64,000 bases of DNA from a candidate division WWE3 bacterium RIFOXYC1_FULL_40_10 (GCA_001773215.1 MEWB01000001.1:550099-614098), one strand, 5' to 3'; positions 1-16,468 are shown, numbered from the stretch's first letter. Notes: generated by a model from the letters alone, not told the origin. Numbers and translations are program-made.

Positions 1-135
1 AGATTGTGTTGGTGGAACAGTAAAATCCAAAGATCTACCAATTAATGAATTCTGAAATAAAATGCCCGAGATGAAAATGGCACTCAAAAAGAAGTAAAGA
101 ACAAAAGGAAATACATATGCTGGTTTTATTTTCAT
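1..135 (-). CDS. Partial CDS: N-terminus of a membrane protein, runs off the window start. Reads MKIKPAYVFPFVLYFFLSAIFISGILFQ....
   Basis: ATG at 135..133 sits immediately after the TAA stop of the upstream radical-SAM gene (TAAATG). The sequence is hydrophobic and helix-like. It is shorter than the ORF-track cutoff. Confidence 0.3.
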   Translation of the reverse strand, partial: MKIKPAYVFPFVLYFFLSAIFISGILFQNSLIGRSLDFTVPPTQS

Positions 136-1593
136 TTATGACTCCTTTGACTTATTAGACAGCATCGAGTACAGCTTCCCTCCCAAGCGGCTTTGAAATA
201 CCATTAGAGCTATACGATGGATAAGGGGAACACGCGTCAAAAAATAAGCCATATATCCTAAATTAGGCCCTAGCCTAAAAACTAAGGTTTTTTTCTCGTA
301 CAGATTAAATCCCATTTTAGTGATCTTTTTCCTTTCGGCTTCCGAAAAATCATCAGTTTCAAATATTGGCCTATTATCTCGATAGGACACATATTTCAAA
401 TAATCCTCTTCCGCAACTAGAAACCTCCCGTTTTTCTTTACCCAAGTATAAGCATCCGTACCCGGGTAGGGCACTAAATTATAGAAGTTCACAAAGGCGC
501 ATGGCAGACTCTCTGCAAAAAGCAATGAATCCAAAGCAGTTCCATAGGTTTCTCCTGTATGCCCAACGATAAAGTTTATACTATGAGGAATTCCCAGATC
601 CTGACACCACTTGGAAGCCTGTAACACCTGGTTCTTTGTTATACCCTTACCAATTTCCTTCAAGATGTAGTTGTTACCCGACTCGCAGCCGAAAGTTAAG
701 AAAATACACCCTGCCTCTTTCATTTTCTTTAACAGACTAATATTTACACTGTCCACTCGGATGCCATTGTACAGAGAAAAAGTTATCCCAAGCCCGGAAC
801 TAATTATTAAGTCGCAAATCTCTTCGGCTCTTGGAACGTGTGTGGTGAAACAGTCGTCGTTAATTTCAAAATGTCTCCAGCCTTTGTTAAACCAATACTC
901 TATTTCCTCAAATACATTCTGCGCTGTTCGGAACCTAAATCCCCTGCCGTGAGATAGCCTTACCGAGCAATAGTTACAGCCATAAGGACATCCTCTGGAG
1001 GTTAGCAAAGGAAGGGTTTTGAAATCTACACATTTATACCTTTCGATCCCAAATGCTTCGTAATCGGGAAAAGGTAAATCTTCCAACTCTTCAGACGTTA
1101 AAAACGGTCTGTCTTTATTTTCTATAACTTCCCCGGATTTAGATACCCATAATAGCCCGTCGATATCAGAAAAATCACTTCTCTTTTCCCGAATAGCATT
1201 AAGAAGAGCAAGTAAGGTTTTTTCGCCCTCGTGTTTTACAGCAAAATCTGCATCTGTCTCTTCCAGGATTTGCTTTCGAGTACCCGACACATGCGGACCA
1301 CCAACAACAAGGGGTATATCACAATTTTCCTTTATCAGCTGAATCATATCGTAACCACTCTGATAACAGTAGCTGAACATCGTCACCCCAATGAGATCGG
1401 GTCTTTCGACCCTAATCGCCTCCAGCAGTTTTGCATCTGAAAATTGTATGCCATCATCAAATATGGCAACCTCAACACCGTTTTTTTTCAACCAAGAAGT
1501 TAAATAAGCTATTCCAACATGAGGATGGCCTGTAGCACCCTCATAGTCACCATACATTGACTTTAGCCTGGGGATAGCAAATAAAACCTTCAT
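136..1593 (-). CDS. B12-binding domain radical SAM protein (class B rSAM, module 1)
   Basis: N-terminal Rossmann-like cobalamin-binding region (VGIAYLTSWLKKNGVEVAIFDDG, LIGVTMFSY, PLVVGGPH). Canonical CX3CX2C (RGCPYGCNYCSV) followed by a TIM-barrel-like rSAM core. The start overlaps the ferredoxin stop (ATGA). Confidence 0.75.
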   Translation of the reverse strand: MKVLFAIPRLKSMYGDYEGATGHPHVGIAYLTSWLKKNGVEVAIFDDGIQFSDAKLLEAIRVERPDLIGVTMFSYCYQSGYDMIQLIKENCDIPLVVGGPHVSGTRKQILEETDADFAVKHEGEKTLLALLNAIREKRSDFSDIDGLLWVSKSGEVIENKDRPFLTSEELEDLPFPDYEAFGIERYKCVDFKTLPLLTSRGCPYGCNYCSVRLSHGRGFRFRTAQNVFEEIEYWFNKGWRHFEINDDCFTTHVPRAEEICDLIISSGLGITFSLYNGIRVDSVNISLLKKMKEAGCIFLTFGCESGNNYILKEIGKGITKNQVLQASKWCQDLGIPHSINFIVGHTGETYGTALDSLLFAESLPCAFVNFYNLVPYPGTDAYTWVKKNGRFLVAEEDYLKYVSYRDNRPIFETDDFSEAERKKITKMGFNLYEKKTLVFRLGPNLGYMAYFLTRVPLIHRIALMVFQSRLGGKLYSMLSNKSKES

Positions 1594-1808
1594 GCTACTT
1601 TCTTGCCCTCTGAATCAAACAGTTCGATGGCACCTACCGGGCACATCCTCGCGACCATCATACCCTTTTCTAAGTTCGCATCTTCTACTTCAGCCAGAGG
1701 CTCTGAAATTGATTCTTTCTCACTTACCTTAAATAAATCAGGAGAGTTTATCTCACACACACCACAACCAATGCATATATCTTTTTTGATAGTTATTTTA
1801 TATTTCAT
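1590..1808 (-). CDS. Small single-cluster ferredoxin (CxGCGVC...CP motif)
   Basis: CIGCGVCEINSP ... ARMCPVGAIE over 72 aa. It is translationally coupled to the downstream rSAM. Confidence 0.7.
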   Translation of the reverse strand: MKYKITIKKDICIGCGVCEINSPDLFKVSEKESISEPLAEVEDANLEKGMMVARMCPVGAIELFDSEGKKVA

Positions 1809-1815
1809 AATTTAG

Positions 1816-4245
1816 TTACTTAATTCCCTCGACAGAAAGATCTCTAACTTGGCAGGTAGATCCTGTAATTTTACACAAATATCTAACATAGAATTTGGCT
1901 GTATTAACGTCCTCGAGAAAAATTTCATGGTTCTGGGTTGCATTATCCTCGTATGTGACATCTTTTAACCAATTAGCACCGTCCAAACTATATGAAACTG
2001 TGATCGTGTTGTTAAAAGTATACGTTTTACTATTGAGGACTATATTTGAAACCTGGGCGGGAAACTCAAAATAGTACACCAAAGGTTTTTCTGGATCCCC
2101 GGAATAGTTGAATATGATACCATCCATTGCCTGAAGCCACCCCTCGTTTGTTATCGAGTCGAATAACCATTTATTGCTTTTCTTTGTTTCCAAATCTGCC
2201 ACGTATTTATAGGAACCCCCTGATTCCTCAAAAGCCTTTGTGCCGTTTTGAGACCCATCGTACAGATTCAATCGATACAACCTAGACTCACCAGGATTAA
2301 ACTCGCGTCTCTCTGAATAATCCATTTTTAATTTGATGTATAACAATTTATCCTTAACAGGAACGGTAATTACGGGGTCATAAAAAACTTCCTTGTCACC
2401 CTCTTTTGAGTAAATAACAGAAAAGTCATTCGGATTATCTCCCGCCGACACTTCAAACGTAACTCCCGGGGGAACTGCAAACAACGTTCGTAAGCTCACT
2501 TCCGCCGGGGGCACTTTAAAAGAAAATGGGTATACTATTTCACTGTCCTTATTGTTAACACTGGCCAAATGGTAATAGCCATAGGTCATGGGTAAGTTGT
2601 AGTTTCCCAAATAGGATACTCCAACATTTTTCCAGTAACTTGCGTCTGCAAACATTTTGCTATAACTGAAATCATCATAATATTGCCACCTAACATTTGG
2701 TGAATTATCCAAAGCTATAGGCAACTTTTTCTCGAATGTAATCTCGTGAATCTGAAAATTCGCGATTTTATCTATCAACTTGTTTTTGGCTGATCCCGAT
2801 AGATACAAATTTTTGAAGTCTGGAATGCTTACGAAATAGTTCTTTCCCGGGGAATTTCGAAACCTTTCATACTCGTCTGAATCCATCAGTAGGAAATAGC
2901 TTTCCGTAAACCAAACTTTGTTCTTACTTTCGGAGCCAAAATAGAAATCAAAGAACGTATCTTCCCCATCTCTTACAAACACTCTGTCTCCCGGTACCAT
3001 TTTACCCTTTAAGTATTCGTGAACTGCTCTCCAGCTATATTCCACATTGGTGTCTAGGGGAAATCCGTAAGTTGTCCTAACCCTCAGGGGAGTAATTGCC
3101 AAAAATGTAATGAGCACCAATAACACCGATAATATCCCACGGAGGGGTACCCTTAGCCGAATTTCTTCTAAGTATTTCGACGTAAGCTCGGATATACTCC
3201 ATAGCCCGTAAGAGATTCCAAGTAGGTACACCGGTAATATGAAGAAAAAATACTTTTCCTCAAACCAATGAGAGGGCCGAACAAAATACAGCTGAAGGAA
3301 CGGGTAGAAAGTCCACAAAAGGACAAAACTTAGAAGCCTAATTTTCTTACGTCCGATCATACTCATAACCCCAAAGGCAAAAACCGTCGTATACAGAAAA
3401 AGCCGGATTCCAGGTCCCAGCCCAAACCAGGAAAACATTGCTAAATAAAACTTTAGAGAAAAATCTAAAGTGGTGCTGTCCATCTGCCGGGCTAAAGAGT
3501 ATCCCAGCTCCAGGGGATGAGAAGGACCATAGTTTACAAGTTTTGTAAAAAGCCCTACATAATAACCTGATCCAACGTTTAGAAATACGATTATACCTGC
3601 AATACAGATACCCATAAACAGCAAGAGTTGATATCTATACTTCTTTAATACAGCAGGATTCACCAAAATGTTTGCGATAAGAAAAACACCAGACATAGCG
3701 GCGACATATAGAGAAGCTGTTTGAGTAAGGATGTTAAGAATATTAGCAAGAGCGTATAACCCTAAAAACCTTACATTTATTACAGACTGCTTGAGATCGT
3801 CTAATAATCTTATTAGGTAATAGATTACTAGTAAAGTAAAAAACATGAAGTACGAATAATGGAGTATCTGCTGTGAAAATTCTACAGCCATAGGAGATAC
3901 TGCCAATAATAAAGCCGCAGAGAGTCCTACTTCATCCCCACCCAATTTTTTAGCTATCAAAAACAGCAGGTATACGGAGCTAACTCCAAACATTACTGAT
4001 GGAAGGCCTAAGGTAAACGTGTTTCTGCCAAATATGGAGAACAGCTTTACAAAGTAATAGTGAGTTGGAGTGGCGACCTCTTTGTATATTTGCACCCAAC
4101 CCCTAGAGGCCTGTTGAACCGACAGGGCTTCATCGTACCAAACATCTCTGGTAGCTAAACCCCTCATACGCAACGCCAAAGCCAAAAACAGGATCAGTAC
4201 CAGGATAATATCTTTCTTACTTAGCTTTTTAATTATTTCGTACAT
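1816..4245 (-). CDS. GT-C fold membrane glycosyltransferase (PMT_2/ArnT-like, GT39/GT83-type) with a large C-terminal extracytoplasmic domain
   Basis: About 11 TM helices. There is a DE motif in the first loop (RDVWYDEALSVQQASRGW). A roughly 430-aa soluble C-terminal domain follows. Confidence 0.6.
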   Translation of the reverse strand: MYEIIKKLSKKDIILVLILFLALALRMRGLATRDVWYDEALSVQQASRGWVQIYKEVATPTHYYFVKLFSIFGRNTFTLGLPSVMFGVSSVYLLFLIAKKLGGDEVGLSAALLLAVSPMAVEFSQQILHYSYFMFFTLLVIYYLIRLLDDLKQSVINVRFLGLYALANILNILTQTASLYVAAMSGVFLIANILVNPAVLKKYRYQLLLFMGICIAGIIVFLNVGSGYYVGLFTKLVNYGPSHPLELGYSLARQMDSTTLDFSLKFYLAMFSWFGLGPGIRLFLYTTVFAFGVMSMIGRKKIRLLSFVLLWTFYPFLQLYFVRPSHWFEEKYFFFILPVYLLGISYGLWSISELTSKYLEEIRLRVPLRGILSVLLVLITFLAITPLRVRTTYGFPLDTNVEYSWRAVHEYLKGKMVPGDRVFVRDGEDTFFDFYFGSESKNKVWFTESYFLLMDSDEYERFRNSPGKNYFVSIPDFKNLYLSGSAKNKLIDKIANFQIHEITFEKKLPIALDNSPNVRWQYYDDFSYSKMFADASYWKNVGVSYLGNYNLPMTYGYYHLASVNNKDSEIVYPFSFKVPPAEVSLRTLFAVPPGVTFEVSAGDNPNDFSVIYSKEGDKEVFYDPVITVPVKDKLLYIKLKMDYSERREFNPGESRLYRLNLYDGSQNGTKAFEESGGSYKYVADLETKKSNKWLFDSITNEGWLQAMDGIIFNYSGDPEKPLVYYFEFPAQVSNIVLNSKTYTFNNTITVSYSLDGANWLKDVTYEDNATQNHEIFLEDVNTAKFYVRYLCKITGSTCQVRDLSVEGIK

Positions 4246-6092
4246 AAAATTAGCAAATCAGCGCCCCTAACTTTTGAATTTTTTCCTTTTGAAACCAAGC
4301 CATTTATTTCTTGCTTATAGTGACTCGTGATTTTACTATTTGCATTGTGGTCAAAAAACCGGCGAGCAAATGAAAGCACGCCCATTTTGTCCCACAGGTT
4401 TAGCGCTTCCTTTGTTATTGTATATGAATAACTCACAAGCTTAAAACCCCTAGCCTCAAGTTTTTTTGCGTAGCTTTTATGATCATATAGGTGGTAATGA
4501 TTAAGCATTTTGTTTCTGTATTTAACGTAAAGGGGGATCAAAAAATTCATTTTTACTTGAGCCAACAGTTGGGATACATAAAGATACTCACTAAAATAAG
4601 CGCTTGGGGACGTAAACAAAAAGTACCCGCCAGGCTTTAATACTCTGTAAATTTCCGAGAGTGTTGCATCATTATCGGGAATGTGCTCAATTACAGAATT
4701 AGAAAAAACAAAATTCACGCTTTCATCTTTAAGCGACATCTGTTCCGCCCCTTCCAGGAAAATTTTCTCGTAACGGCAATTCTTGATTGCTTCCTCGACA
4801 TCCTTGGCCTCCCCATTGTCGACCCCGTATGTAAACTTGCCGGCAAAACACATGCTTGATATTAAGCCATCCCCGCAACCAACATCCAAGGAGGGTCCTA
4901 AAAACTCATACTCCTTTACCGATTCATACATCATTTTTAATTCCAACGCTCTAAATAGCACAGCCGAAGGGTGGTCATACACTTTAAACAACTCTTCAGT
5001 ATCTACCATTTTTACTTTCAAGGAAGGAAATTTCACTTTAGTTTCCAAATTGGCATCTGAACAAAAGATAACTCTTTGTTTAGCGACACTGTATCGATAG
5101 TCCTCTTTTATTATCACTCTGTATAATCCCACAACAGTACCAAATAGAGCGCCTAGCTGGTCCACGCTTCCGGTTCTGAAAAAATTCAAGAAATAGTAGG
5201 TATTCTGCAAAGTCAGATTCACCAAAAATCTAAATAGCTGATCGATATTCGCGATCCTAAAAAATCTAAAATAGAAAATCAGTAGGTTTTGGATTCGATG
5301 ATAAGGCGCCGGACGTGCTTTTTTTACTTTTCCCGACTCAACATGATGTTCAAGACTCACCTTGGGATCGAAAATGAGCTTATAACTGAGTCTTTGAATT
5401 TTTAGGGCTGCATCAGCTTCGTGATAATCACCCAAGCCTTTAATATAGATAGTATCAAAACCGCCGATTTGCTTTAGCAAAGAAGTTCTGGCCGACCAAT
5501 TACACGCTTCCAGGTTTGATACTTCTAGCGGCTTTTCTATTTTTAGACACTCCTTATAGTTAGACCCCAAGGTGAAAACTCCGCTCTTTAGGAAAGTGCT
5601 AACCTCATACATTTTGTTTTCGTAAAGGTAATTATTGTAAATTTTATACACCAGCTTTAAAACCCAGTTTTCGCTGTTTTTAAAGTTTTCCAATACAGCT
5701 GTAAGATCTCTGGAGTGCAGTCCGGCTTGGTTCATTATCGTAGGCCCGGTAACACCCCCAACAGCTATATCCCTTTTAAAAGCTTCCACCATACTTCTAA
5801 ACCACTCGGGATGCATGGTAGTGTCATCATCGATTCTTACAAATATCTCACATGTCGCTCGATCCAAGGCTTCGTTAGCTGCCCCGATTAAGCCACTTTT
5901 ACTTTGGATAAAATACTCAATATCAAGCTTTTTGTATGATAAAACCAATTTTTGAATTTTCTCATCATCTTTCATACCAGCCAAAAGAATAGTGAAATCT
6001 TTTAATGATTGCCTATCCAGGCTATCTAAACATTTTTTAAGGGAGTTCAATCTATTCGAAGTAGGTATAAAGATATTAGCTGCTTTACTCAT
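4233..6092 (-). CDS. Bifunctional glycosyltransferase family 2 (N-term) / class I SAM-dependent methyltransferase (C-term)
   Basis: GT2 signature at the N-terminus (FTILLAGMKDDEK, IDDD). The C-terminus carries LDVGCGDGLIS ... VIEHIPD ... LKPGGYFLF, a Methyltransf_11-like fold. Confidence 0.65.
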   Translation of the reverse strand: MSKAANIFIPTSNRLNSLKKCLDSLDRQSLKDFTILLAGMKDDEKIQKLVLSYKKLDIEYFIQSKSGLIGAANEALDRATCEIFVRIDDDTTMHPEWFRSMVEAFKRDIAVGGVTGPTIMNQAGLHSRDLTAVLENFKNSENWVLKLVYKIYNNYLYENKMYEVSTFLKSGVFTLGSNYKECLKIEKPLEVSNLEACNWSARTSLLKQIGGFDTIYIKGLGDYHEADAALKIQRLSYKLIFDPKVSLEHHVESGKVKKARPAPYHRIQNLLIFYFRFFRIANIDQLFRFLVNLTLQNTYYFLNFFRTGSVDQLGALFGTVVGLYRVIIKEDYRYSVAKQRVIFCSDANLETKVKFPSLKVKMVDTEELFKVYDHPSAVLFRALELKMMYESVKEYEFLGPSLDVGCGDGLISSMCFAGKFTYGVDNGEAKDVEEAIKNCRYEKIFLEGAEQMSLKDESVNFVFSNSVIEHIPDNDATLSEIYRVLKPGGYFLFTSPSAYFSEYLYVSQLLAQVKMNFLIPLYVKYRNKMLNHYHLYDHKSYAKKLEARGFKLVSYSYTITKEALNLWDKMGVLSFARRFFDHNANSKITSHYKQEINGLVSKGKNSKVRGADLLILCTK

Positions 6093-7132
6093 TTTGTTTT
6101 TACGAAACCTTCTGCATTTCCAACTTTATGAACTTTCAACACTTTTGCTAAAAAATAACTTAACTCCTTCTTTCTCATAACTATCCTAAACAAATCATGG
6201 TCAGATACCGTCCTAATGCCCTGAATCCTTTTTCGCTTAATCAGTGTACTCTCAAGATTAGTTATATTCCAAAATATCGCCTGGTGGATCCACAAAAAAG
6301 GTTTGTAATCCCCTCTAAGCAATGAGTACCAAGCAAGCCCAAGCCATAAAAACAAGTGTATCGGCAGTATCCTGGCTAAACTCCCGCCCTCCAAATTCTT
6401 AATTAACGTTAATATATAGTTCTTTGTTCCATGAAACTTGGCATTATAATTGTTTTTGCTTTTTCCAAGTATCACTGTGCTTGTGCCAAATTCATGAAAA
6501 ACCACTGAAGCAGGAATATACACAGCTTTAAACCCCGCTAACCAGGATCTCCAACCCAGGTCAGTTTCTTCCACATATATAAAGTAATCTTTATCGAAAC
6601 CTTCGATCTTTTCGAAAGTCTCCTTTCGTATGAACATGCCCGCAGATTTAGCAGCCAATATAGGAACACTTTCGTTAAATTCACCATTATCTAGCTCCCC
6701 TGCCTTAACTCTTTGAACTAAAAACCCGTTTTGGCCTATATATTCCCCAACGTAGTCAAGTTTGTTACGTTCTTTCGACAAAATCAGCTTACATTGTACT
6801 ATGCCTGTATTAGGGTCTGAGTCTAGCGCTTTGGCTGCCTCATTTTCCCAATTTGGATCAACCAAAGTGTCGTTGTCCAAGAATCCCAAATATCTACCTT
6901 CACTAACCTCAACGCCTTTATTTCGAGCATACGCAGGGCCATAGTTTTTGTCCAAAGCCACCACTTTTATTTGCTTATATTTGTCTTTAAGAAAGTCAAC
7001 GGTTCCATCATCAGAACCATTATCGACTACAATTACTTCCAGATCAGTCGAGTTAGCCGAAAGAACTGAGTTAACGCATGCATCCACGTAGTTTTTCCCA
7101 TTGTACGTTACTATAATTACCGAGGATCTCAC
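6089..7132 (-). CDS. Glycosyltransferase family 2
   Basis: SSVIIVTYNGKNYVDACVNSV, VVDNGSDDGT and a DxD motif (FLDNDT). Confidence 0.7.
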   Translation of the reverse strand: MRSSVIIVTYNGKNYVDACVNSVLSANSTDLEVIVVDNGSDDGTVDFLKDKYKQIKVVALDKNYGPAYARNKGVEVSEGRYLGFLDNDTLVDPNWENEAAKALDSDPNTGIVQCKLILSKERNKLDYVGEYIGQNGFLVQRVKAGELDNGEFNESVPILAAKSAGMFIRKETFEKIEGFDKDYFIYVEETDLGWRSWLAGFKAVYIPASVVFHEFGTSTVILGKSKNNYNAKFHGTKNYILTLIKNLEGGSLARILPIHLFLWLGLAWYSLLRGDYKPFLWIHQAIFWNITNLESTLIKRKRIQGIRTVSDHDLFRIVMRKKELSYFLAKVLKVHKVGNAEGFVKTK

Positions 7133-8280
7133 TTCCCGATAGCCTCCCTATACCACTCCAGGTATATTCGGGCTGTGTTTTCAGGCGAACGCTCTTTAGC
7201 TTTTTTTAGTGTTGCCTGTTCTATCTGCTTAACCACCTCGGGATTCTCCGCTATATATTTGAACGCATCATGCCATTTATCGTTTTCAATCAAATAGCCG
7301 GTTTTCAAGTGATCTAAATCTTCAATAAAATGCCCTATTTTAGTGGCAATAACACATTTTCCATAACTTGCGGCATGGAACAAAGGCCCGCTTGACCCCA
7401 TAGATAGTATTGCCGGATTACAAACAGCATACGCCTTTTCATATAGGTCGTCCTGCTGTTCCATATTAATAAATCCCTTCATTTCTACTTTCCCCTTCAT
7501 CGCAGTCCCTTCTATCTGGTTCTTGATTTCGTCAAAAGCCTCCTCCTGCCCTTTTATAATGCCGCCAGCCAATATCAATCTAAAATCTGAATGCGGGTTG
7601 GCCGTTAAGTATTTTTGAAACCCATCCAGTAAGTAACCTAACCCTTTTCTTCTAGCCATATAACCAAAGTAGAAAAAATAATGTTCTTTAGGTAAATTTC
7701 GTAACCTCTTTTGAGGAATTGCTATTGGTATAACTTTTACTCTTTTAGCATCAACCCCATAATCCGTACTAATAATTTTTCGGGTAAGCTCTGTGTGAAC
7801 TATTTGTCTGCCCGAAAGCAGTGAAATAGATTTGTAAATATAATGAAAGGCTAATGAAACCATAAAAGGTTTAACGTACTTTGGGTTTTGATGAAATATT
7901 CTAATTAGCTCGTGATCAATTTGTTTTTTATAAACCGCAGCATGAACAGTGACAACCGTTTTAAATCCCATTATTTTTAACATGAGTAAAAGGAGTGGAA
8001 AAAACATAGCCGTAATCAATCCCCCATACATATTTAGCTCATGTTGCAGGTGTATCAAATCAGGTTTGTCGGCCAATACCTGCCTAAGTATTTCATAAAC
8101 ATACGATAGTGACTTCGACCAGACAAGTTTAATCTCCCCACACCCTTGAATTTCCAAATTTTTGGGATCCTTATCTGCATAAACGATTAGCTCAATACCA
8201 GGATTGTTGGCAAGCCCACTCGTAATTGATTGCGAATAATGACCAACAGGCAACATTCCGGATATAAATACTACTTTCAT
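7129..8280 (-). CDS. Glycosyltransferase family 1 (GT4-like)
   Basis: GT-B architecture. The C-terminal half has FGYMARRKGLGYL and an E-x7-E-like region. Confidence 0.6.
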   Translation of the reverse strand: MKVVFISGMLPVGHYSQSITSGLANNPGIELIVYADKDPKNLEIQGCGEIKLVWSKSLSYVYEILRQVLADKPDLIHLQHELNMYGGLITAMFFPLLLLMLKIMGFKTVVTVHAAVYKKQIDHELIRIFHQNPKYVKPFMVSLAFHYIYKSISLLSGRQIVHTELTRKIISTDYGVDAKRVKVIPIAIPQKRLRNLPKEHYFFYFGYMARRKGLGYLLDGFQKYLTANPHSDFRLILAGGIIKGQEEAFDEIKNQIEGTAMKGKVEMKGFINMEQQDDLYEKAYAVCNPAILSMGSSGPLFHAASYGKCVIATKIGHFIEDLDHLKTGYLIENDKWHDAFKYIAENPEVVKQIEQATLKKAKERSPENTARIYLEWYREAIGK

Positions 8281-9215
8281 ATTTTCATTTTTTCCTCAAT
8301 TATATTCTCGATCATTTTCTCAAAAGTCACACTTGGAGTCCAACCGGTTAATTTTCTTAACTTTGTATTGTCTCCCACCACAGGGTTTCTTCTTCTGGTC
8401 AAAACTTGATTGTTTTCTTTAACATGTTTTTGCCAGTCAAGCTTTAAATAGTCAAAAACTATGCGAACAAAATCCCTCACTGTGTGCTTATTACCTGTCG
8501 AAACCACAAAGTCGCCGGGCACACCAAGCTGTAGTACCCTCCACATTGCTTCCACGTAGTCGGGAGCATATCCCCAATCTACTTCGGCATCCAAATCACC
8601 CAACACTAATTCTGTTTCCAAACCTCTCTTTATTTCCAAGGCGGTCTTAATTATCTTCATGGTAACAAATTTCTCCTCTCTTAATACAGACTCATGGTTA
8701 AATAGAATCACGTTGGAAATAAACATTCCTTGAGTATCCCGATACATTTTTCCTAACTGCATCCCACTATATTTAGTTATAGCATAAGGGTTTTTTGGAT
8801 CCACCGGTGTATCCTCACAAACCATCTCCTTGCTAGGGTCTCCAAAAATTAGCGATGAGGATGCATAAAGTACTTTTGTATGTACAGACTCCTGTTTTAT
8901 AGCTTCCAAAAAGTTGGTGTAACCTTTAACATGAACGTCGAAGCTTTTTTCCACTAGTTTAGCCCCATCAATCGCTGTGTCTTGCGAAGAGTGGTGATAG
9001 GCAGCCAGGTAGTATAATTCATCTGGTTTGGTATTTTTTATCAAGCCTGCCACCATAGCTGAATCCAGGATATCTACTTTTGAAATCCACTCAAATCTGG
9101 TTTCGTCAAAATAATCCAAGTCCAGTCCTAATAAACCGTAATTCTTTCCCCTCAATAGCGAAGTGAGTAATACACCATCCTGGCCTTTACTCCCAACTAT
9201 TATTGCTTTGCTCAT
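8277..9215 (-). CDS. GMD-family short-chain dehydrogenase/reductase, likely GDP-4-keto-6-deoxyhexose reductase (Rmd-like)
   Basis: GxxGxxG (VGSKGQDG), YxxxK, and the GMD/Rmd-type motif [13 protein letters not shown] shared with the upstream Gmd. At 312 aa it is Rmd-sized. Confidence 0.6.
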
Positions 9216-11521
9216 CTAACAATTTCCAATCTGGGTAAAGGGAATACTAGGCTCCCTCCGGAATCCATGTATTTACCTTCTTTACGTATAAAGTTTTCTC
9301 TAAAATGCCAAGGGAGTACAACCATATACTCGGGGCTATCTTTGCGAGCCTCTGCCTCCGAAACAATAGGTATCCCTGTAGTCGGAGTAACCCTTCCGAA
9401 TTTGTAGTCATTCACCTCGGCTATACAAGACATTAAATCAGAAGTAATCCCACAGTACTGTAAAATTACATTTCCTTTTGTTGAAGCCCCATACCCGATA
9501 ACTTTTTCCCCAGAGTTTTTTCTTTCTCTCAAAAAATTTATCAATGTTCTTCTACTGTTTTCTACTCTTTTCTTAAAATCTTCATAAACCAAGTTACTTG
9601 ATAAACCCCTGGCCTCTTCGTCTTTTAGTATGTCCTCGATCGTTTCCGTGGCTTCTCTATACTTAGAGTCCTTTTTAGACACCATAATTAGAAAACTGGC
9701 TCCGTTTGTATCGTTAAAACTAACATCAATTATTTTCAACCCGGCTTTATCAAACATCCACTTCAACGATTTCAATGAGTAATATTCCAAATGCTCATGG
9801 CAAATAGTGTCGTAGGAGGTATTATCCAACATATGAGGCATATAGCTCTGCTCCAATACCCATACTCCATCATCCGCTAAAACTTCGGAGATTTGCTTTA
9901 CAATTTCAAACGGGTGTTCCAAGTCGTAAAACATTGCGATCGAGGTAACTACTTTAACTTTTTGAGAGAATCTTTGTTTTATAGTATCAGCGCTGAAAAA
10001 CTCAGGTATACGAACTATATTATTGGGATAATACTCTTTAAATTTCTCGGCAGTAGGATCAACGCCAACCAAAACCAGATCCTTAGCTTGGTATTTTTGT
10101 AACATGGTACTGTCGTTACTTCCTATATCCAGAACAATATCCCCCATGTTTATATCCACTCTTGATTCTATTTTTCGTACAATTTCGGTTAAATGTTTCA
10201 CCATCGAATTATTTAACCCCGAACGATAACCGTAATTTTCACCGTATAGAAGTTCTAAATCGTAGTTATGCTTCAACTGCAGCAAACCGCAGCCACCCTC
10301 CCCACATCGAACTATTGCCAAAGGGCCTTCCGGTACTTTTTCGTTAGGTAAAGGAAATACACCACTTAATCCAAATATACCTAAATCCAACACATCAATT
10401 AGCCTGGTATTTCCACAAATTCTGCAGCTATCTATTTGCTTGTACAGCATTCTTCCAATTGTTTTTGGTGCCTCAACAGCCACCGGTTTAGCGGATTTAT
10501 ACTCCCTTAGATCTTCTTGAACCATAATGTCAATTAACTGGTCAAATTTAGTTTTAGGTGACCATCCCAGTTTGGTTCGAGCTTTTGAATTATCCCCAAG
10601 GAGGACATCTACTTCAGTAGGTCTAAAATATCGGGCATCTATCTCAACAATTGTATTTCTTGTTTTCTTGTCAATTCCCTTCTCATTTATCCCCTCGCCA
10701 ATCCACTCCAGATTAATCCCAACAAGTGAAAATGCTTTTTCACAGAATTCCCTCACAGTATGTGTTTCACCCGAAGAAATTATAAAATCGTCCGGTGTTT
10801 CTTGCTGGAGCATAAGCCACATCGCCTCAACATACTCCGGAGCATATCCCCAGTCTCTTTTGGCATCAAGGTTTCCTAAGTAAAGTTTCTCCTGCAAACC
10901 GTAATAAATCTTTGCTACTGCTTGTGTTATCTTTCGAGTAACAAAGGTTTTACCTCTCCGAGGAGACTCATGGTTAAACAAAATGCCATTACAGGCGAAT
11001 AAATTGTAGGCTTCACGGTAATTTACAGTAGTCCAATAAGCATATAGCTTGGCACTGGCATATGGAGACCTGGGATAAAACGGTGTATTCTCGCTTTGGG
11101 GTATTTCTTTTGCTTTTCCAAATAACTCAGATGTAGACGCTTGATAAAAACGTGCATTCGGACAGTTGTTTTTTAACCCATCCAGCAATCGAAGAACACC
11201 TATGGCGTCAATTTGAGCTGTATACTCCGGAACTTGAAATGAAAGATGCACGTGTGACTGGGCACCTAAATTATAAATTTCGTCAGGCTTTACTTCGGCC
11301 AAGATTTTATCCAAATTATTGGAATCAGTAAGGTCTCCATAAATAAGCTTTAGCTGCCCGCCGGTTGAGTGCGGAAACTGGATAATATGGTCAATTCTCT
11401 CAGTATTAAATGTAGAAGCCGCCCTCCTTAGGCCATATACTTCATATCCTTTTTGTAAGAGAAACTCCGCCAAATAAGAACCGTCCTGACCAGTAACGCC
11501 GGTAATTAAAGCTTTTTTCAT
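9212..11521 (-). CDS. gmd: GDP-mannose 4,6-dehydratase (N-term ~350 aa) fused to a TylC3/TcaB9-like NDP-hexose C-methyltransferase (Zn-binding Methyltransf_13 + C-terminal Methyltransf_14 domains)
   Basis: [30 protein letters not shown] ... [13 protein letters not shown] is classic Gmd. A 4-Cys Zn site follows (CRICGNTR ... CGEGGCG), then SAM-binding VLDIGSNDS and a long C-terminal domain. Confidence 0.75.
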
Positions 11522-11570: not shown

Positions 11571-12866
11571 TCAATCTCCTTCGAACTTAACTTGGGCATA
11601 GTATCTTAAACCATGTTCTCTAAGTACTTCTCCTCCTTTTAGGTCGGGCAAATCTACAACAAAGGCCAACTCTACAATCTCGGCACCTAGTTTCTTGAGT
11701 AGCCTCGCAGCTGCAAAGGAAGTTCCTCCTGTGGCTAAAAGATCGTCTACCAATAATACTTTTTGACCATACGAAATAGCGTCTCTGTGTACTTCAATAG
11801 TATCAGTTCCGTATTCTTTTTGGTAGGTTTCATACTCACATTCGGCAGGTAGTTTTCCCTTTTTTCGTATCGGAACAAAACCCACTCCAAGCTTATTGGC
11901 CAATGCACCCCCCAAAATGAAGCCTCTACTTTCGATGCCTGCTACAACATCTATGTCAATTTCCGAGTATCGGGTTACGAAATCGTTAATACAAATGTTA
12001 AAACTAACTTGATCCTTTAACAAGGTCGTAATATCCCTAAACATCACACCTTCTTTTGGCCAATTAGGAATTGTTCTTATCTTAGACTTAAGTCCACTTG
12101 TAGCTAACACCTCTACCATCGCTACTATAAGCTTTTTCACCCTTTCGGAATTAGCCTTCATGCGAGTAATAACCATTTCAAAATTGACCGGCTCCTCATT
12201 TTCTTTCCAACAGTCGTAATCGGTGGACATCGCGATCGACTGGTAGGGTATTCCCAATTCGTTAGCCAAAATCACCTCGGGACAGGTGGACATATTGATT
12301 ATGTCTGCCCCCAATTTCTGAAACATCCTACTCTCGGCCTTAGTAGAAAACCTAGGGCCTTCGATTGTCACTATCGTTACGTCTTTGTTATACGAATATC
12401 CAAGGTTCTCACAGATTTCACATAGTCGGCTGCGCATTCCACCGTCGAAGGGCTCCGACATAGGTGTATGTACAACACCCTCTTCGCAAAAAGTATTTGG
12501 TCTACTACGTGTAAAATCTATAAATTGATCGGGAAAAACAATATTTCCGGGCTTGATATCTTCTTTTAAGGAACCCACTGCTGTTGTTGCTAAAATATGA
12601 GTCACACCCAAATCTTTAAAGGCTTGAATATTTGCTCGATAGTTCACTTTCGAAGGTAAAATACCATGCTGCTTGCCATGACGAGAGATTATTGCCACAT
12701 CAACTCCGGAAAGCTTTCCAAGTGTTATGGGAGAGGAAGGAAAACCCCATTTAGTTGGTATTATCTTCTCTTCGTAGTGAGTAAGTAACCGGGGATCATC
12801 AAGACCAGACCCCCCGATAATTCCTATAAGCATAAAAGAATAGTAGTAGCAAATTAGGGGGAACAC
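11571..12866 (-). CDS. Fusion protein: MTA/purine nucleoside phosphorylase (MTAP/PNP family) + adenine phosphoribosyltransferase. The likely true start is the internal ATG near 12833 (MLIGIIGGSG).
   Basis: N-terminal half matches MTAP (IGIIGGSGLDD ... ISRHGKQH ... MSTCPEV). C-terminal half matches APRT nearly end to end (PKEGVMFRDITTLL ... GIESRGF ... VLLVDDLLATGGT). Confidence 0.75.
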   Translation of the reverse strand: MFPLICYYYSFMLIGIIGGSGLDDPRLLTHYEEKIIPTKWGFPSSPITLGKLSGVDVAIISRHGKQHGILPSKVNYRANIQAFKDLGVTHILATTAVGSLKEDIKPGNIVFPDQFIDFTRSRPNTFCEEGVVHTPMSEPFDGGMRSRLCEICENLGYSYNKDVTIVTIEGPRFSTKAESRMFQKLGADIINMSTCPEVILANELGIPYQSIAMSTDYDCWKENEEPVNFEMVITRMKANSERVKKLIVAMVEVLATSGLKSKIRTIPNWPKEGVMFRDITTLLKDQVSFNICINDFVTRYSEIDIDVVAGIESRGFILGGALANKLGVGFVPIRKKGKLPAECEYETYQKEYGTDTIEVHRDAISYGQKVLLVDDLLATGGTSFAAARLLKKLGAEIVELAFVVDLPDLKGGEVLREHGLRYYAQVKFEGD

Positions 12867-13294
12867 AAGGGGAAAGATGATTTAAGATCGAACTTATGCG
12901 TTATTCTGTGATACAAAAAGTAAGCGTACAACCCTGGAGAATTTGTAAACTGGTCAATTAGCAAATGAACCGCCAGAGATAAACCTACGGAATAGAATAG
13001 TAGACTGGAATTAGCTACTAACCCTAAAGAAACAATCCCAAAAGCCAATTCCCAGGAATGGAGGAAAATGTATGCTTTTTGAGATTCTTTAAAATAATTC
13101 CCCGAGAAAAATCCCTTTAGTGTTACTCTCGATCCTCTGAATATCAAGTAATCAATCAAATGGTCTCCGTCGATAAAAAAACCGGCTACCAAGGACAATA
13201 CAAGGGGTAAATAGGATCCTGATAACAAAGAAAGCGAACCCCCCACAAGCAAGCTGGCACTCAAATGCATTATCTCAGTGTAAACCAGAGACAT
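12854..13294 (-). CDS. Small polytopic membrane protein with His/Asp motifs (FIDGDHLIDY, HLLIDQ). Possibly a membrane-bound metal-dependent hydrolase-like (DUF457/YdjM-like) protein.
   Basis: About 4 TM helices and conserved H/D clusters. The family assignment is uncertain. Confidence 0.35.
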   Translation of the reverse strand: MSLVYTEIMHLSASLLVGGSLSLLSGSYLPLVLSLVAGFFIDGDHLIDYLIFRGSRVTLKGFFSGNYFKESQKAYIFLHSWELAFGIVSLGLVANSSLLFYSVGLSLAVHLLIDQFTNSPGLYAYFLYHRITHKFDLKSSFPLCSP

Positions 13295-13300
13295 TACTTA

Positions 13301-14908
13301 CTAAGCCTTAAGCCTCTTGGGCAATAAATGGCGGAATAAACTCTTTGACGCATTAATCCAAAATTTGGGATGATACCAACTTACCTTTGTCTGCTCCTCA
13401 TCGAAGTCGAGTAAGTGTCCAAGTATCCTCTTAGCGGCCATAAGATAGAACCTGATGTCAGCCCAGGTTCTGATACTTAAGATTTTTCGCATAATATATT
13501 GGGGCGTAAAAAACGACGAGTAGAGTGACTGAGTAAGCTCATACAATCTCTCCGTAGAAAAATGGGTCTTCATAACCGGCGCCCTCATATCAAACGCTTC
13601 GTAGTCAAAAGGGTCTACGGTTAACCACCCTTTTTCGACACATTCCTTATATAGTGGCGTACCTGGGTAGGGAATTGTGATAGTGGCTTGCATAGTATCA
13701 ACGTAACCTTTTTTGAACAGCTCTCGTGCCAAATTAATGGTGTTTTGAGCCATCTCTTCGGTTTCCCACGGATAACCTAACATAATTGTAAGATGAGGCT
13801 CTAATCCGCCTTTTTTCGCCATTTGGACTCCTTTTTCAATCTCCTCAATCTTTAAACCCTTATCAAGCTTGTCCAGAGTCTCTTGATTACCTGATTCCAT
13901 ACCGTACAAAATGAACCTAAAATTCGCCTTACCCATTAAATCGTAGTATTCCTGGTTTAAGGCATTTAAACGCATGTTACAGGAATAAACCACTTTTTTA
14001 CTGTAACCTGATTCAATCAACAGCTCACAAAACTTTTTGAGAGGAGGCCCCACAAAAAGTGTTCCGGCATCATCGAAAATTTCTTTTACCCCATACTTAT
14101 CTACTACATACTTCACCTCGGCAAATAACCTTTCGGGCGAAAAGCGGCGATAAGAGCCCCTTGGATTAATTGTGTGATCCCAAACACAAAAAGTACATCT
14201 ATTCCACCAGCAATCCCTGCCTGAATACATGTAAGTAGCTGGAGTATACTTATAATTTCCGTTCTCATAAGCATACAATTCCCATTTGGTTATGTCTCTA
14301 TCAACAAAGGGCAGGTCATCAAGTTTATGTGTAAGCTTTGCCGGGCCGGTCCACCAATATGTATCCTCATGTTTTGTCTGCTCTGGTAAAATGTGTTGCT
14401 TTCCCGTGTCTCTCCCCCAAATTCCCGATGGTACTTCTTTACCCTGAGATATAGAATCAGCCAAGTCCGAGAGTAAAAAGTCATAGTCACCACCCAAAAT
14501 AATATAATCTACTTTACATGCCCCCAAAGTCTCTTTTGGCAAATAGGTAACGTGATCACCTACCATTACAATATCCATACTTTTGAACTGCTCTTTAAGC
14601 TCATTCACAAGCTTCCAATGCATTTTTACAACAGGGGCCTTAGTTTCCAGTAACAATAAGTCAGGCTGTTCTTTTTCGAGTTGAGCCAACCATTCTTTGT
14701 AACTTTTCTTTTCTGCAATACCATCCATCCAGACCACCTCGTACCCCCGTTCTTTTGCTATGGTAGCAGCATAAGCAGGGATCATTGGGTATATATATGT
14801 AGGTGCATTGAAAAACTGAAACTGGCGATTTTGCGATAGCAACGGTACACCCTTGTCTGTCTCAATGGGCGGATAGGCGATGACAATTTTAAAAGTATTT
14901 TTTTGCAT
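13301..14908 (-). CDS. B12-binding domain radical SAM protein (module 2). Start moved to the ATG at 14908 (MQKNTFKIVIAYPP); the ORF-track start at 14947 is a TTG.
   Basis: Same architecture as 136..1593, with an N-terminal B12-binding fold (IVMVGDH, YIILGG). The Cys motif is CX4CX2C (RDCWWNRCTFCVW), not CX3CX2C. The N-terminus aligns with rSAM1 when the start is at 14908. Confidence 0.7.
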   Translation of the reverse strand: MQKNTFKIVIAYPPIETDKGVPLLSQNRQFQFFNAPTYIYPMIPAYAATIAKERGYEVVWMDGIAEKKSYKEWLAQLEKEQPDLLLLETKAPVVKMHWKLVNELKEQFKSMDIVMVGDHVTYLPKETLGACKVDYIILGGDYDFLLSDLADSISQGKEVPSGIWGRDTGKQHILPEQTKHEDTYWWTGPAKLTHKLDDLPFVDRDITKWELYAYENGNYKYTPATYMYSGRDCWWNRCTFCVWDHTINPRGSYRRFSPERLFAEVKYVVDKYGVKEIFDDAGTLFVGPPLKKFCELLIESGYSKKVVYSCNMRLNALNQEYYDLMGKANFRFILYGMESGNQETLDKLDKGLKIEEIEKGVQMAKKGGLEPHLTIMLGYPWETEEMAQNTINLARELFKKGYVDTMQATITIPYPGTPLYKECVEKGWLTVDPFDYEAFDMRAPVMKTHFSTERLYELTQSLYSSFFTPQYIMRKILSIRTWADIRFYLMAAKRILGHLLDFDEEQTKVSWYHPKFWINASKSLFRHLLPKRLKA

Positions 14909-15010
14909 ATTAGTAATAGTACTACATATAGATGTATATGGATACAATGGAATTTAGACCTATAAGATGATAAACTCCTGTTACATCAAAACTAAACAAA
15001 GGAGTTGAAC

Positions 15011-15325
15011 ATGCTTTATCCAGCGACAGCTAAAACAATTGTTGAACAAGCTTTACGTGCGTGGTTAAAGGGGCGCGATCTGTTGTGTGACATAATTCTT
15101 GACGAAAAGTTGAGTGTTGACCGCCAGAAGGACAAACCGGCGATATATTTCTTCGAGATCACATTTCTTACTAATGACCAGGGAGTGCAAAACGCACGAA
15201 AGTGCCAGATTTGGATTGTCCAAGAGCCCAATGGTCCTACTCATGGAAGTTGTATAATGCTTCGAGACCAAGCGACTTACGAAACCAAATTTCAATATTG
15301 GAACGAGGAAATCGTTTTACTGTAA
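15011..15325 (+). CDS. Hypothetical small protein, paralog 1 of 3 (unknown family)
   Basis: SD AAAGGAG 6 nt upstream of ATG 15011; the ORF-track start 15005 is a TTG. It shares the motifs xAWLKx ... aromatic beta-strand ... QIxIV-E-NG with the next two ORFs. Confidence 0.6.
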   Translation: MLYPATAKTIVEQALRAWLKGRDLLCDIILDEKLSVDRQKDKPAIYFFEITFLTNDQGVQNARKCQIWIVQEPNGPTHGSCIMLRDQATYETKFQYWNEEIVLL

Positions 15326-15337
15326 AGAGGCCGCCAA

Positions 15338-15706
15338 ATGGACAGAGTTATTTCACTAGAGGATCTCGAAAACGAAGTCAGTAAGGCATTCTTGTCGTGG
15401 GCTAAGCAATGCCCTTTGCAAATTATACAAATAAAGTTTGCACACCCTGAGATGGTGGCTGTCAAAAAGGAAGGCAATAGGTACACCGCTTTCTTTCATA
15501 TCCACTTTCATGCCAATGTTATGGGCAAGGAAAGTGACATCTTTGATGTTCAGATCGCTGTAGAAACCAATGGTGTTGTAACTAACACTTTGATCTTTTT
15601 GGCTGAGGGTCCCATCAGTGGAACCGCTTACCTGTTGAACTCAAGTAATGCATATGGAAAAAGATTCAAGATCGTGGAAAACTCCATTGAGTTTACCGAT
15701 ATCTAG
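15338..15706 (+). CDS. Hypothetical small protein, paralog 2 of 3
   Basis: SD AAAGAGG 7 nt upstream. Contains LSWAKQ ... YTAFFHIHFHANVMGKESDIFDVQIAVETNG. It starts 12 nt after the paralog-1 stop. Confidence 0.6.
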   Translation: MDRVISLEDLENEVSKAFLSWAKQCPLQIIQIKFAHPEMVAVKKEGNRYTAFFHIHFHANVMGKESDIFDVQIAVETNGVVTNTLIFLAEGPISGTAYLLNSSNAYGKRFKIVENSIEFTDI

Positions 15707-15714
15707 TGGCTAAT

Positions 15715-15765
15715 GAAACCCATCTCTCATAAAGGTGGGTTCATGTTTGATAAATGACCTATAAT
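15715..15765 (+). promoter_or_regulatory. Weak hairpin (gaaaccca...tgggttc) followed by a perfect TATAAT hexamer at 15760..15765. A possible partial terminator plus internal promoter for paralog 3.
   Basis: The stem is 6-7 bp with a bulge, and TATAAT lies about 40 nt upstream of ATG 15806. I found no convincing -35 (TTGATA is only 7 nt away). Confidence 0.2.
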
Positions 15766-15805
15766 ATAGTATGCTGTTATAACGTCATAAAAAAAAGGAG
15801 CTAGA

Positions 15806-16159
15806 ATGTCGCAGGACAAAAACTACTGGATGGAAGTTTGTAGGAATATAGTTAACGTAATTATTCAAGAGTGGCTGAAAAAAAACTACCCCGGAATCGA
15901 TTTTACAAAACTTTGCACAAACAGAGACACCTCCAAAAATAACAATACAAACACTCACATAAAGTGCTGGTTTGACTGTTTGGCCGAGTATGGGCATGGA
16001 TTGAATGCCCAGGTAGAGATCGGTATTGAAGTTTTGGTGCACGCAGAGAACGAGTGGGAAATTAGGGGCCAATTGACAGAAAGGCGAGTGAATTGCCCTA
16101 TAGCACTTGAATTTCTGGTCACAAGCTATTCTCCTAGAGCTACTGTGGTTTGGTTATAG
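15806..16159 (+). CDS. Hypothetical small protein, paralog 3 of 3 (Asn-rich insert KNNNTNTH)
   Basis: SD AAAGGAG 5 nt upstream. Contains QEWLKKN ... HIKCWFDCLAEYGHGLNAQVEIGIEVLVHAENE. It is preceded by a 99-nt spacer with a hairpin and a TATAAT hexamer. Confidence 0.6.
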   Translation: MSQDKNYWMEVCRNIVNVIIQEWLKKNYPGIDFTKLCTNRDTSKNNNTNTHIKCWFDCLAEYGHGLNAQVEIGIEVLVHAENEWEIRGQLTERRVNCPIALEFLVTSYSPRATVVWL

Positions 16160-16170
16160 TAAGAACTAAA

Positions 16171-16209
16171 GGGCGTGCTATTTTTAAAATAAAGCGCGCC
16201 TTTTTTATT
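16171..16209 (+). terminator. Rho-independent terminator between convergent genes, likely bidirectional
   Basis: Stem GGCGTGC / GCGCGCC (7 bp, one G-U) with an AT loop, followed by TTTTTTATT on the plus strand. An A-tract precedes the stem, so the minus-strand reading also gets a hairpin + U-rich tail. It overlaps the ferredoxin stop. Confidence 0.55.
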
Positions 16210-16465: not shown

Positions 16466-16468
16466 ATT

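Follow-up and report, generated by a model that had tools for sequence, protein, structure and literature searches.

Two putative glycan-tailoring radical SAM modules of a WWE3 bacterium within one very large glycan locus of the cell envelope

Cobalamin-dependent radical S-adenosylmethionine (SAM) enzymes are known to C-methylate sugars, as do GenD1, GenK and MoeK5 (PMC4340712, PMC9204698), and in the solved enzymes of this class B the cobalamin is contacted by a G/A-x-S/T-x-X motif in the β3-α3 loop, a Gly-Gly pair on β4 and a Gly-Glu pair at the start of α5 (PMC9204698). HpnI, a family 2 glycosyltransferase (GT2), makes a glycolipid whose sugar ring is contracted by HpnJ, the product of the neighboring gene (PMC9204698; PMC12324291), and a recent survey finds HpnJ restricted to genomes in which SHC and HpnH are present too (PMC12324291). 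AprD4, from apramycin biosynthesis (PDB 6FD2), is a cobalamin-free 1,2-diol dehydratase of sugars (PMC12931638). Here we analyze two radical SAM genes, rSAM1 and rSAM2, and the small ferredoxin genes near them, Fd1 and Fd2, in a stretch of 64,000 nucleotides (the window) from the candidate division WWE3 bacterium RIFOXYC1_FULL_40_10 (GCA_001773215.1, MEWB01000001.1:550099-614098). We think it rather probable that they belong to two independent glycan-tailoring modules within one very large cell-envelope glycan locus, and most likely both enzymes modify cell-surface sugars. Both families are uncharacterized, and the main interest lies in the second module, which is strongly conserved in Patescibacteria.

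Relatives of rSAM2 occur in 491 species representatives of GTDB. We took synteny from the 80 best loci, counting upstream neighbors over the 66 that have enough upstream sequence and downstream neighbors over 74. Among the best 120 matches, which are 68-100% identical, those with names are Patescibacteria, and the 80 loci are labeled WWE3, Roizmanbacteria, Microgenomates and Parcubacteria, many of them being automatically named "Saccharibacteria" or "Gammaproteobacteria". At 62-76% identity across these 80 loci, rSAM2 is the most conserved gene of a module whose order is PMT_2, Wzx, GT2_269, GT2_337, ferredoxin, rSAM2 (medians in Table 1). A GT2_337 homolog stands upstream of rSAM2 on the same strand in 64 of the 66 loci, and a ferredoxin lies between the two in 50, ending within 150 bp of rSAM2 in 31. 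The association with glycan genes that the earlier note on this DNA had proposed is thus borne out for rSAM2.

The rSAM2 protein belongs to the radical SAM superfamily (Radical_SAM, PF04055, 65.3 bits), and its cluster motif, invariant in the family, is C246-x4-C251-x2-C254. This is a known variant of CX3CX2C, found also in OxsB, which acts on a nucleoside and contracts its ring, and in GenD1, which methylates a sugar. Three further cysteines, 307, 323 and 436, are invariant in the family and might bind an auxiliary cluster. The family alignment favors the ATG at 14908 as start over the TTG at 14947. The earlier note had labeled both enzymes as B12-binding members of class B, and for rSAM2 this label does not hold at the level of domain and motifs: B12-binding (PF02310) scores 30.1 bits, just under the cut-off of 32.1, and the positions of the three cobalamin contacts read L99-L-E101-T-K103, where G-x-S/T-x-X would be expected, invariant G130-D131 in place of Gly-Gly, and invariant G153-D154. 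A search of the family-profile N-terminal domain against the PDB by sequence gave no significant match and no cobalamin domain, while the structure model shows a diverged five-strand Rossmann-like N-terminal domain and a barrel. The best fold match by two methods is AprD4. Among the NCBIfam models the top one is HpnJ (TIGR03471), at 175.1 bits over nearly the full length against 85 bits for the next, with a family cut-off of 577.6. Since its cobalamin motifs are degenerate, radical methylation is only one option for rSAM2, and a role as a B12 methylase is doubtful.

For rSAM1 the class-B label stands. Both the radical SAM domain (81 bits) and the B12-binding domain (62.4 bits) are recognized by Pfam, the cluster motif is the canonical C202-x3-C206-x2-C209 with a partial TIM-barrel core, and all three cobalamin motifs, G69-V-T71-M-F73 (that is, G69-x-T71-x-F73), G98-G99 and G123-E124, are kept across the family alignment. 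By profile alignment the first of these lies on G65-x-T67-x-R69 of TsrM (GVTVR) and G182-x-S184-x-N186 of OxsB (GLSVN), and the GG and GE motifs fall on those of TsrM, OxsB, CysS and MgmA. The AlphaFold2 model (pLDDT 88.3) has a Rossmann domain of five (β-α) units and a barrel, and the closest solved folds found by Foldseek are TsrM (E 7e-24), then MgmA, OxsB and CysS. With both N-terminal domains modeled as five-strand Rossmann-like folds, the earlier note is not refuted on this point. No NCBIfam cut-off is reached by rSAM1, the best models being ApyD (158 bits) and HpnJ (143.8 bits). Its sequence and model mark rSAM1 as what appears to be a genuine class-B-type enzyme of an uncharacterized subfamily, for which B12 methylation is plausible and radical C-methylation of a sugar the most economical guess.

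Could both enzymes nevertheless be cobalamin-dependent radical C-methyltransferases of glycan sugars, in the manner of GenK, GenD1 or MoeK5, each with a dedicated ferredoxin? We regard this as unlikely, although it is the alternative that fares best. Both proteins have the class-B architecture, rSAM1 keeps every cobalamin motif, rSAM2 shares its CX4CX2C motif with GenD1, and the locus is rich in other methyltransferases. Set against this are, for rSAM2, the B12-binding score and the altered motifs described above, a top fold that is cobalamin free and a best hidden Markov model (HMM) that is not a methylase. Moreover, the cut-off of no methylase family is reached by either enzyme: both lie far under those of PhpK (TIGR04479), KedN5 (NF033712), HpnR (TIGR04367), MgmA (TIGR04014) and the Trp 2-C-methyltransferase (TIGR04428), and the curated GenK, GenD1, Fom3 and MoeK5 models are not among the matches listed for either. 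To our knowledge, Patescibacteria with genomes of about 0.9 Mb lack cobalamin synthesis, which also counts against two methylases. The earlier note's proposal of radical methylation thus stays plausible for rSAM1 and becomes doubtful for rSAM2.

Both small proteins are single-cluster ferredoxins by Pfam: Fd1 scores 32.9 bits with Fer4_13 (cut-off 24.5) and 30.6 bits with Fer4_15, Fd2 35.5 and 33.6 bits. Neither has the CxxGxC motif that the earlier note gave them. The four cysteines of Fd1 would be able to hold a [4Fe-4S] cluster. Of the 57 members of the Fd2 family, 53 carry Ala at the second ligand position, and the four-cysteine form CxxCxxC is found in Fd1 and in two ferredoxins beside rSAM2 in other loci. 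A three-cysteine pattern is associated with [3Fe-4S] clusters.

The two ferredoxins differ in how they are tied to their enzymes, and the pairing of ferredoxin with radical SAM enzyme that the earlier note proposed is supported across loci for Fd2 but finds no such support for Fd1. In one related locus (L010) the ferredoxin ends 40 bp before rSAM2, which we take as the ancestral adjacency, and in 15 of the 50 ferredoxin-bearing loci the two genes are more than 500 bp apart, with variable genes in between. The window belongs to the latter kind, Fd2 and rSAM2 being 1.26 kb apart with three opposite-strand open reading frames (ORFs) between them. These ORFs, which are called as genes in the source assemblies, have no significant match in Pfam, NCBIfam, PADLOC or PHROG (a weak PHROG match for the first, E 0.0068), no detectable similarity to one another and no homolog in the 80 related loci; they add another case to a site where insertions recur, and here they break the ancestral adjacency. 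A scan of 12500-17000 for promoters and terminators found sites no commoner than in shuffled sequence and was not used. In the 15 loci of the 66 where a ferredoxin is missing, GT2_337 ends 6-209 bp from rSAM2 in 13 and 1.1-1.7 kb from it in the remaining two. Fd1, in turn, starts 7 nt past the gene for an 809-aa PMT_2 protein, and its stop codon overlaps the start of rSAM1 (ATGA), as the earlier note had seen, which argues for co-expression of the two. A search of 5.8 billion proteins for Fd1 homologs returned only Fd1 itself, and no ferredoxin lies beside rSAM1 orthologs in any of 23 loci, so that the Fd1-rSAM1 pairing appears specific to this lineage, with Fd1 an addition.

One might then ask whether the ferredoxins are general housekeeping carriers, partners for example of pyruvate:ferredoxin oxidoreductase (PFOR) or hydrogenase, that merely lie in a glycan locus while the radical SAM enzymes are reduced otherwise. 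Patescibacteria have few electron carriers (PMC3812714), and an adjacent ferredoxin is absent from 15 of the 66 rSAM2 loci and from all 23 rSAM1-ortholog loci. Fd2, moreover, is of the three-cysteine type that is best known as a partner of cytochrome P450. Yet across WWE3, Roizmanbacteria, Microgenomates and Parcubacteria-labeled genomes the ferredoxin occupies the identical slot between GT2_337 and rSAM2, and Fd1 is translationally coupled to rSAM1; such specific positions are not expected of a housekeeping gene, and we consider this explanation improbable.

The orthologs of rSAM1 were drawn from a wider field. Homologs at 50-66% identity are numerous, the named ones coming from Omnitrophota, Aenigmarchaeota, Methanolobus and Candidatus Hakubella, and some (four examples) are fused to a class-I SAM methyltransferase. 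A metagenome scan for relatives gave 17 true orthologs (at least 41% identity) in 80 loci, the others being generic class-B paralogs that were left out, and the context count covers 23 orthologous loci. In these, from bacteria and archaea alike, the rSAM1 ortholog always lies inside a glycan cluster, as the earlier note's glycan association would have it. In most a GT2 gene is immediately upstream, in seven loci an ortholog of GT2_347 (42-52% identical), and methyltransferases, further B12-domain radical SAM enzymes and SPASM radical SAM enzymes are often close by. The gene that rSAM1 orthologs usually precede encodes a polytopic membrane protein of 765-900 aa (homologous proteins of 755-896 aa). 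The family is horizontally spread among Omnitrophota, DPANN archaea and methanogens, and module 1 is a horizontally mobile cassette.

The closest relatives of rSAM1 sit in glycan clusters with two to three B12-domain radical SAM enzymes together with SPASM-domain ones (loci L001, L171, L172 and L173; positions noted are 3286-4701 and 8457-9917 in L171 and 3677-5083 in L173). Clusters of this kind suggest that uncultured bacteria modify their sugars by entire suites of radical reactions. In the Aenigmarchaeota rSAM1-ortholog locus, L005, a 957-aa radical SAM gene at 37-2910 has faint Pfam matches to intein-splicing and LAGLIDADG homing-endonuclease domains.

A non-sugar substrate, either a polyprenyl or membrane lipid (of the HpnP, HpnR or ladderane type) or a protein or peptide acceptor (as for the ribosomally synthesized and post-translationally modified peptide (RiPP) enzyme ApyD, or for MgmA), is very unlikely, since, although ApyD is the top NCBIfam model of rSAM1, lipid-acting families score too, the protein methylase MgmA is a high fold match for both enzymes and nearby PMT_2 enzymes could glycosylate proteins, the ApyD and lipid-family scores lie far under their cut-offs, no precursor peptide or lipid-synthesis genes are found near the rSAM genes, the sole invariant neighbor of each rSAM family is a GT2 glycosyltransferase, and neither enzyme has a hydrophobic membrane segment. 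The last result also leads us to reject membrane anchoring of the two enzymes.

Two further candidates were set aside. A BchE-like cyclase, which would have counted as a refutation of the earlier note, is ruled out, the BchE model (TIGR02026) being the closest family of neither enzyme and scoring 113 bits with rSAM1 and 85 with rSAM2, far under the cut-off of 481, with no tetrapyrrole context; the JGI labels "anaerobic Mg-protoporphyrin cyclase" on these proteins are automatic over-annotations. HpnJ itself is likewise out of reach for both enzymes by its cut-off, and no hopanoid genes (shc, hpnH, hpnK) occur in the window.

The four ORFs on which the earlier note built are real, and Pfam confirms two of them as radical SAM enzymes and two, by scores above the cut-offs, as ferredoxins. 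The larger picture that the note drew from them, a duplicated pair of modules bracketing a single 39-kb operon, has to be redrawn. The two radical SAM enzymes are 24% identical (E 8e-22), which rules out a recent duplication, and the two ferredoxins 36%; since each enzyme has orthologs elsewhere at much higher identity (up to 66% for rSAM1, 77-79% for rSAM2), they represent two old families rather than a local duplication. Nor do the modules bracket the cluster: module 2 is internal to it, positions 1-135 on the minus strand already belong to the gene after rSAM1, and beyond the window edge at least another 10 kb of the source genome, encoding further membrane proteins and GT4 enzymes, is part of the glycan locus. 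A single operon is likewise excluded by the opposite-strand ORFs at 15005-16159.

How might the two modules work? We propose that each radical SAM enzyme of class-B architecture works with its own GT2 on a sugar that, to judge from the neighboring genes only, is probably linked to polyprenyl phosphate. The lipid-linked logic follows from the hydrophobic C-terminal membrane region of GT2_337, which begins at about residue 237, and from the likeness of GT2_269 to polyprenyl-phosphate-sugar synthases (weak, sub-threshold NCBIfam matches to PgfS, ArnC, PpgS, AglJ and a dolichyl-P-hexose transferase). The sugar would be built on the lipid carrier, modified in the cytoplasm (by rSAM2 in module 2), flipped, and installed outside by membrane transferases of the GT-C type. 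The small ferredoxin would supply the low-potential electron for SAM cleavage, drawn probably from PFOR, and for rSAM1 it would probably also support re-reduction of the cobalamin; a related WWE3 genome encodes PFOR, a plausible source (PMC3812714). That the ferredoxin feeds the enzyme in this way is suggested by gene position and coupling only. Module 1, consisting of GT2_347, the GT2-methyltransferase fusion, the 809-aa GT-C enzyme, Fd1, rSAM1 and the 765-aa membrane protein, would repeat the lipid-linked logic, with rSAM1 most likely C-methylating an unactivated sugar carbon and Fd1 acting as a lineage-specific, translationally coupled add-on. Module 2, consisting of PMT_2, Wzx, GT2_269, GT2_337, Fd2 and rSAM2, is an ancient one, and for rSAM2 a cobalamin-independent rearrangement, deoxygenation or ring contraction of the lipid-linked sugar seems more likely than methylation. 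What the analysis shows directly is the content of genes, domains and motifs, the folds and the conserved synteny. Glycan tailoring and a supply of electrons by ferredoxin have good support from context; the substrate, the chemistry, and the direction and source of the electron flow we infer.

A more specific and bolder proposal, which we put forward tentatively and hold to be possible rather than probable, is that GT2_269, GT2_337, the three-cysteine ferredoxin and rSAM2 make up a radical system that is specific to Patescibacteria and independent of cobalamin. This would convert a polyprenyl-linked sugar by rearrangement, ring contraction or deoxygenation into a residue of an unusual kind, such as a carbocycle or a branched sugar, that Wzx and the PMT_2 GT-C enzyme install on the surface, the ferredoxin being a built-in shuttle, donor or acceptor. 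If so, the envelopes of WWE3 and Microgenomates would have this product as a signature component.

Several observations weigh against the reading that we favor. A dedicated ferredoxin is not obligatory, being absent from 15 of 66 rSAM2 loci and from all 23 rSAM1-ortholog loci, and in the window the opposite-strand ORFs place Fd2 and rSAM2 in separate transcription units. The potential of three-cysteine [3Fe-4S] ferredoxins is often too high for the reduction of a radical SAM cluster, and Fd2 could be an electron acceptor or be employed otherwise; a role as acceptor or shuttle in an oxidative radical reaction is conceivable. The degenerate motifs of rSAM2 are in themselves no proof that it lacks cobalamin. 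That the substrate is probably lipid linked is, again, a point on which only the neighboring genes speak. A Rfam scan of the whole window gave no matches, cobalamin and SAM riboswitches included, and a literature search on either module or family in the Candidate Phyla Radiation (CPR) or WWE3 turned up nothing relevant.

As to the setting, nearly every gene in the first 60.7 kb or so of the window lies on the minus strand, and positions 1-37.6 kb make up the envelope-glycan locus of this WWE3 (Patescibacteria/CPR) bacterium, beyond which the window holds adk, secY, ribosomal proteins, EF-Tu, EF-G and rpoBC. The locus contains five PMT_2 GT-C transferases (at 1816-4245, 19535-21136, 21133-22617, 22610-24172 and 29232-30743, all on the minus strand), many GT2 and GT4 enzymes, two Wzx-type flippases, sugar-nucleotide enzymes and methyltransferases, a DUF2079 protein (26444-28552), an LPG_synthase_TM protein (24135-25022) and, at 37875-38813, a secreted CAP-domain protein. 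For a genome of about 0.9 Mb, five PMT_2 paralogs with such associated genes represent an uncommonly large commitment to extracytoplasmic glycosylation. A GDP-mannose 4,6-dehydratase (TIGR01472, 560 bits) fused to a sugar C-methyltransferase (Methyltransf_13 and Methyltransf_14) is encoded at 9212-11521 (minus strand), with a short-chain reductase-like gene next after it at 8277-9215 (minus strand); together they look like a route to a GDP-6-deoxy-C-methyl-hexose, so that the locus already has one non-radical C-methylation step.

The remaining neighbors are listed in Table 1. In module 1, the 809-aa protein has about 10 transmembrane-like segments and belongs to the GT-C (PMT_2) enzymes, and a 37%-identical homolog lies near an rSAM1 ortholog in one locus (L091). 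The methyltransferase domain of the 619-aa fusion is 30% identical (E 7e-10) to those fused to rSAM1 homologs. Only the N-terminus of the 765-aa membrane protein falls in the window; the product of the full gene in the source genome (L174, 11459-13756) has about 10 transmembrane segments in its N-terminal part and, on the C-terminal side, a large domain and an anchor. Its homologs adjoin rSAM1 orthologs in L173 (37% identity, E 9e-167), L171, L005 and L001, that is, in bacteria and an archaeon, and Pfam gives no significant match for it or for them; it may represent an undescribed GT-C or YfhO-like transferase family. Directly downstream of rSAM2 in the window lies the gene of a 146-aa membrane protein with the motifs DGDHLIDY, HSWE and HLLIDQ, an occasional partner: 11 of the 74 loci have a homolog at most 300 bp downstream of rSAM2. 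Family searches with it gave nothing significant, the one match being a weak one to DUF6122 (E 0.016). Two genes downstream of rSAM2, at 11571-12866 (minus strand), is a fusion of S-methyl-5'-thioadenosine phosphorylase and adenine phosphoribosyltransferase (TIGR01694, 291 bits, cut-off 274.85; TIGR01090, 217 bits, cut-off 185.85). It could clear 5'-deoxyadenosine or S-methyl-5'-thioadenosine from SAM enzymes and salvage adenine, but as a conserved partner of rSAM2 we rejected it, as it is not syntenic in the 80 related loci.

Table 1. The two radical SAM modules and their neighbors in the window; the last column gives the median identity across the 80 best rSAM2 loci.
Feature	Position	Strand	Description and basis	Median identity
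765-aa polytopic membrane protein (N-terminus)	1-135	-	begins 1 nt after the rSAM1 stop; translation	
rSAM1	136-1593	-	485-aa class-B (cobalamin-type) radical SAM enzyme; Pfam, motifs, AlphaFold2 model, Foldseek	
Fd1	1590-1808	-	72-aa single-cluster ferredoxin, CxxCxxC...CP, four Cys; translation, Pfam	
809-aa GT-C (PMT_2) glycosyltransferase	1816-4245	-	directly upstream of Fd1; PF13231, 36.8 bits (cut-off 26.1)	
GT2-methyltransferase fusion	4233-6092	-	619 aa, GT2 fused to class-I SAM methyltransferase; Pfam	
GT2_347	6089-7132	-	soluble GT2, orthologs are the usual immediate upstream neighbor of rSAM1 orthologs; Pfam	
Small membrane protein	12854-13294	-	146 aa, conserved Asp/His motifs; translation	
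rSAM2	13301-14908	-	535-aa Patescibacteria-specific radical SAM enzyme; ORF reaches TTG at 14947	66.9%
Three orphan ORFs	15005-16159	+	106, 122 and 117 aa, between Fd2 and rSAM2	
Fd2	16205-16465	-	86-aa single-cluster ferredoxin, CxxAxxC...CP, three Cys; translation, Pfam	58%
GT2_337	16469-17482	-	GT2, near-universal upstream partner of rSAM2; Pfam	50%
GT2_269	17479-18288	-	polyprenyl-phosphate-sugar-synthase-like GT2; Pfam	60%
Wzx-type flippase (Polysacc_synt)	18257-19534	-	syntenic in most of the 80 loci, with L006 and L008-L010; Pfam	41%
PMT_2/PMT GT-C glycosyltransferase	19535-21136	-	syntenic upstream of Wzx in many loci; Pfam	47%

Patescibacteria are abundant, mostly uncultured and surface attached, and their envelope chemistry is essentially unknown. 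As the most conserved gene of an envelope-glycan module, found beside the same glycosyltransferases and ferredoxin in hundreds of species, rSAM2 offers a concrete and testable entry point, with an unusual sugar on the cell surface as the prediction. The "B12-binding" radical SAM class, large and for the most part uncharacterized, could gain from it a reaction not known before or a new subclass that is free of cobalamin. The rSAM1 cassette presents the same logic of GT2 plus radical SAM enzyme moving horizontally among bacteria and archaea. A caution that applies to both is that the automatic labels "B12-binding", "BchE" and "YgiQ" are no guide to the function of these proteins.

Among described enzymes, rSAM1 resembles TsrM, OxsB, TokK, CysS and MgmA/QCMT in domain order, in its three cobalamin motifs and in a DD-type SAM motif. 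It differs from the solved class-B members in that it is only 14-22% identical to them, sits in a primary cell-surface glycan locus rather than an antibiotic or RiPP cluster and, at 485 aa against 575-744, lacks the additional substrate domains that TokK, CysS and OxsB have at their C-termini. The likeness of rSAM2 to AprD4 is at the level of fold only, with 16-17% sequence identity, and the AprD4 family model (NF033070) scores 52 and 49 bits with our two enzymes (49 with rSAM2) against a cut-off of 500; moreover, AprD4 acts on an aminoglycoside secondary metabolite, not on an envelope glycan, and no AprD3-type partner was identified here. Fd2 matches the three-cysteine (CxxAxxC...CP) Fer4_13/Fer4_15 ferredoxins in ligand pattern and size, as do most members of its family. 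Such [3Fe-4S] ferredoxins are known as redox partners of actinobacterial P450s, whereas the partner of Fd2 is a radical SAM enzyme.

At the level of whole systems, module 2 can be compared with the three-component pathways ArnC/ArnD/ArnEF/ArnT, GtrA/GtrB/GtrV and CsbB/GtcA/YfhO, in which a GT2 makes a polyprenyl-phosphate sugar, cytoplasmic modification is possible, and a flippase and a GT-C enzyme complete the transfer outside. GT2_269 (like ArnC, PpgS and AglJ by sub-threshold HMM matches only), Wzx and the PMT_2 GT-C enzyme would take these parts in module 2. What sets it apart is that modification would fall to a radical SAM enzyme served by a dedicated ferredoxin, and we know of no Arn-, Gtr- or CsbB-type system that has such an enzyme. 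The other natural comparison is with HpnI and HpnJ (TIGR03472, TIGR03471), where a GT2 attaches a sugar to a lipid and the adjoining gene encodes a B12-domain radical SAM enzyme that contracts the sugar ring to a cyclitol ether. Here too the radical SAM gene adjoins that of a membrane GT2, and HpnJ is by far the top curated family for rSAM2; unlike HpnI-HpnJ, module 2 has a ferredoxin, a flippase (Wzx) and a GT-C transferase as further members, and its hosts are Patescibacteria.

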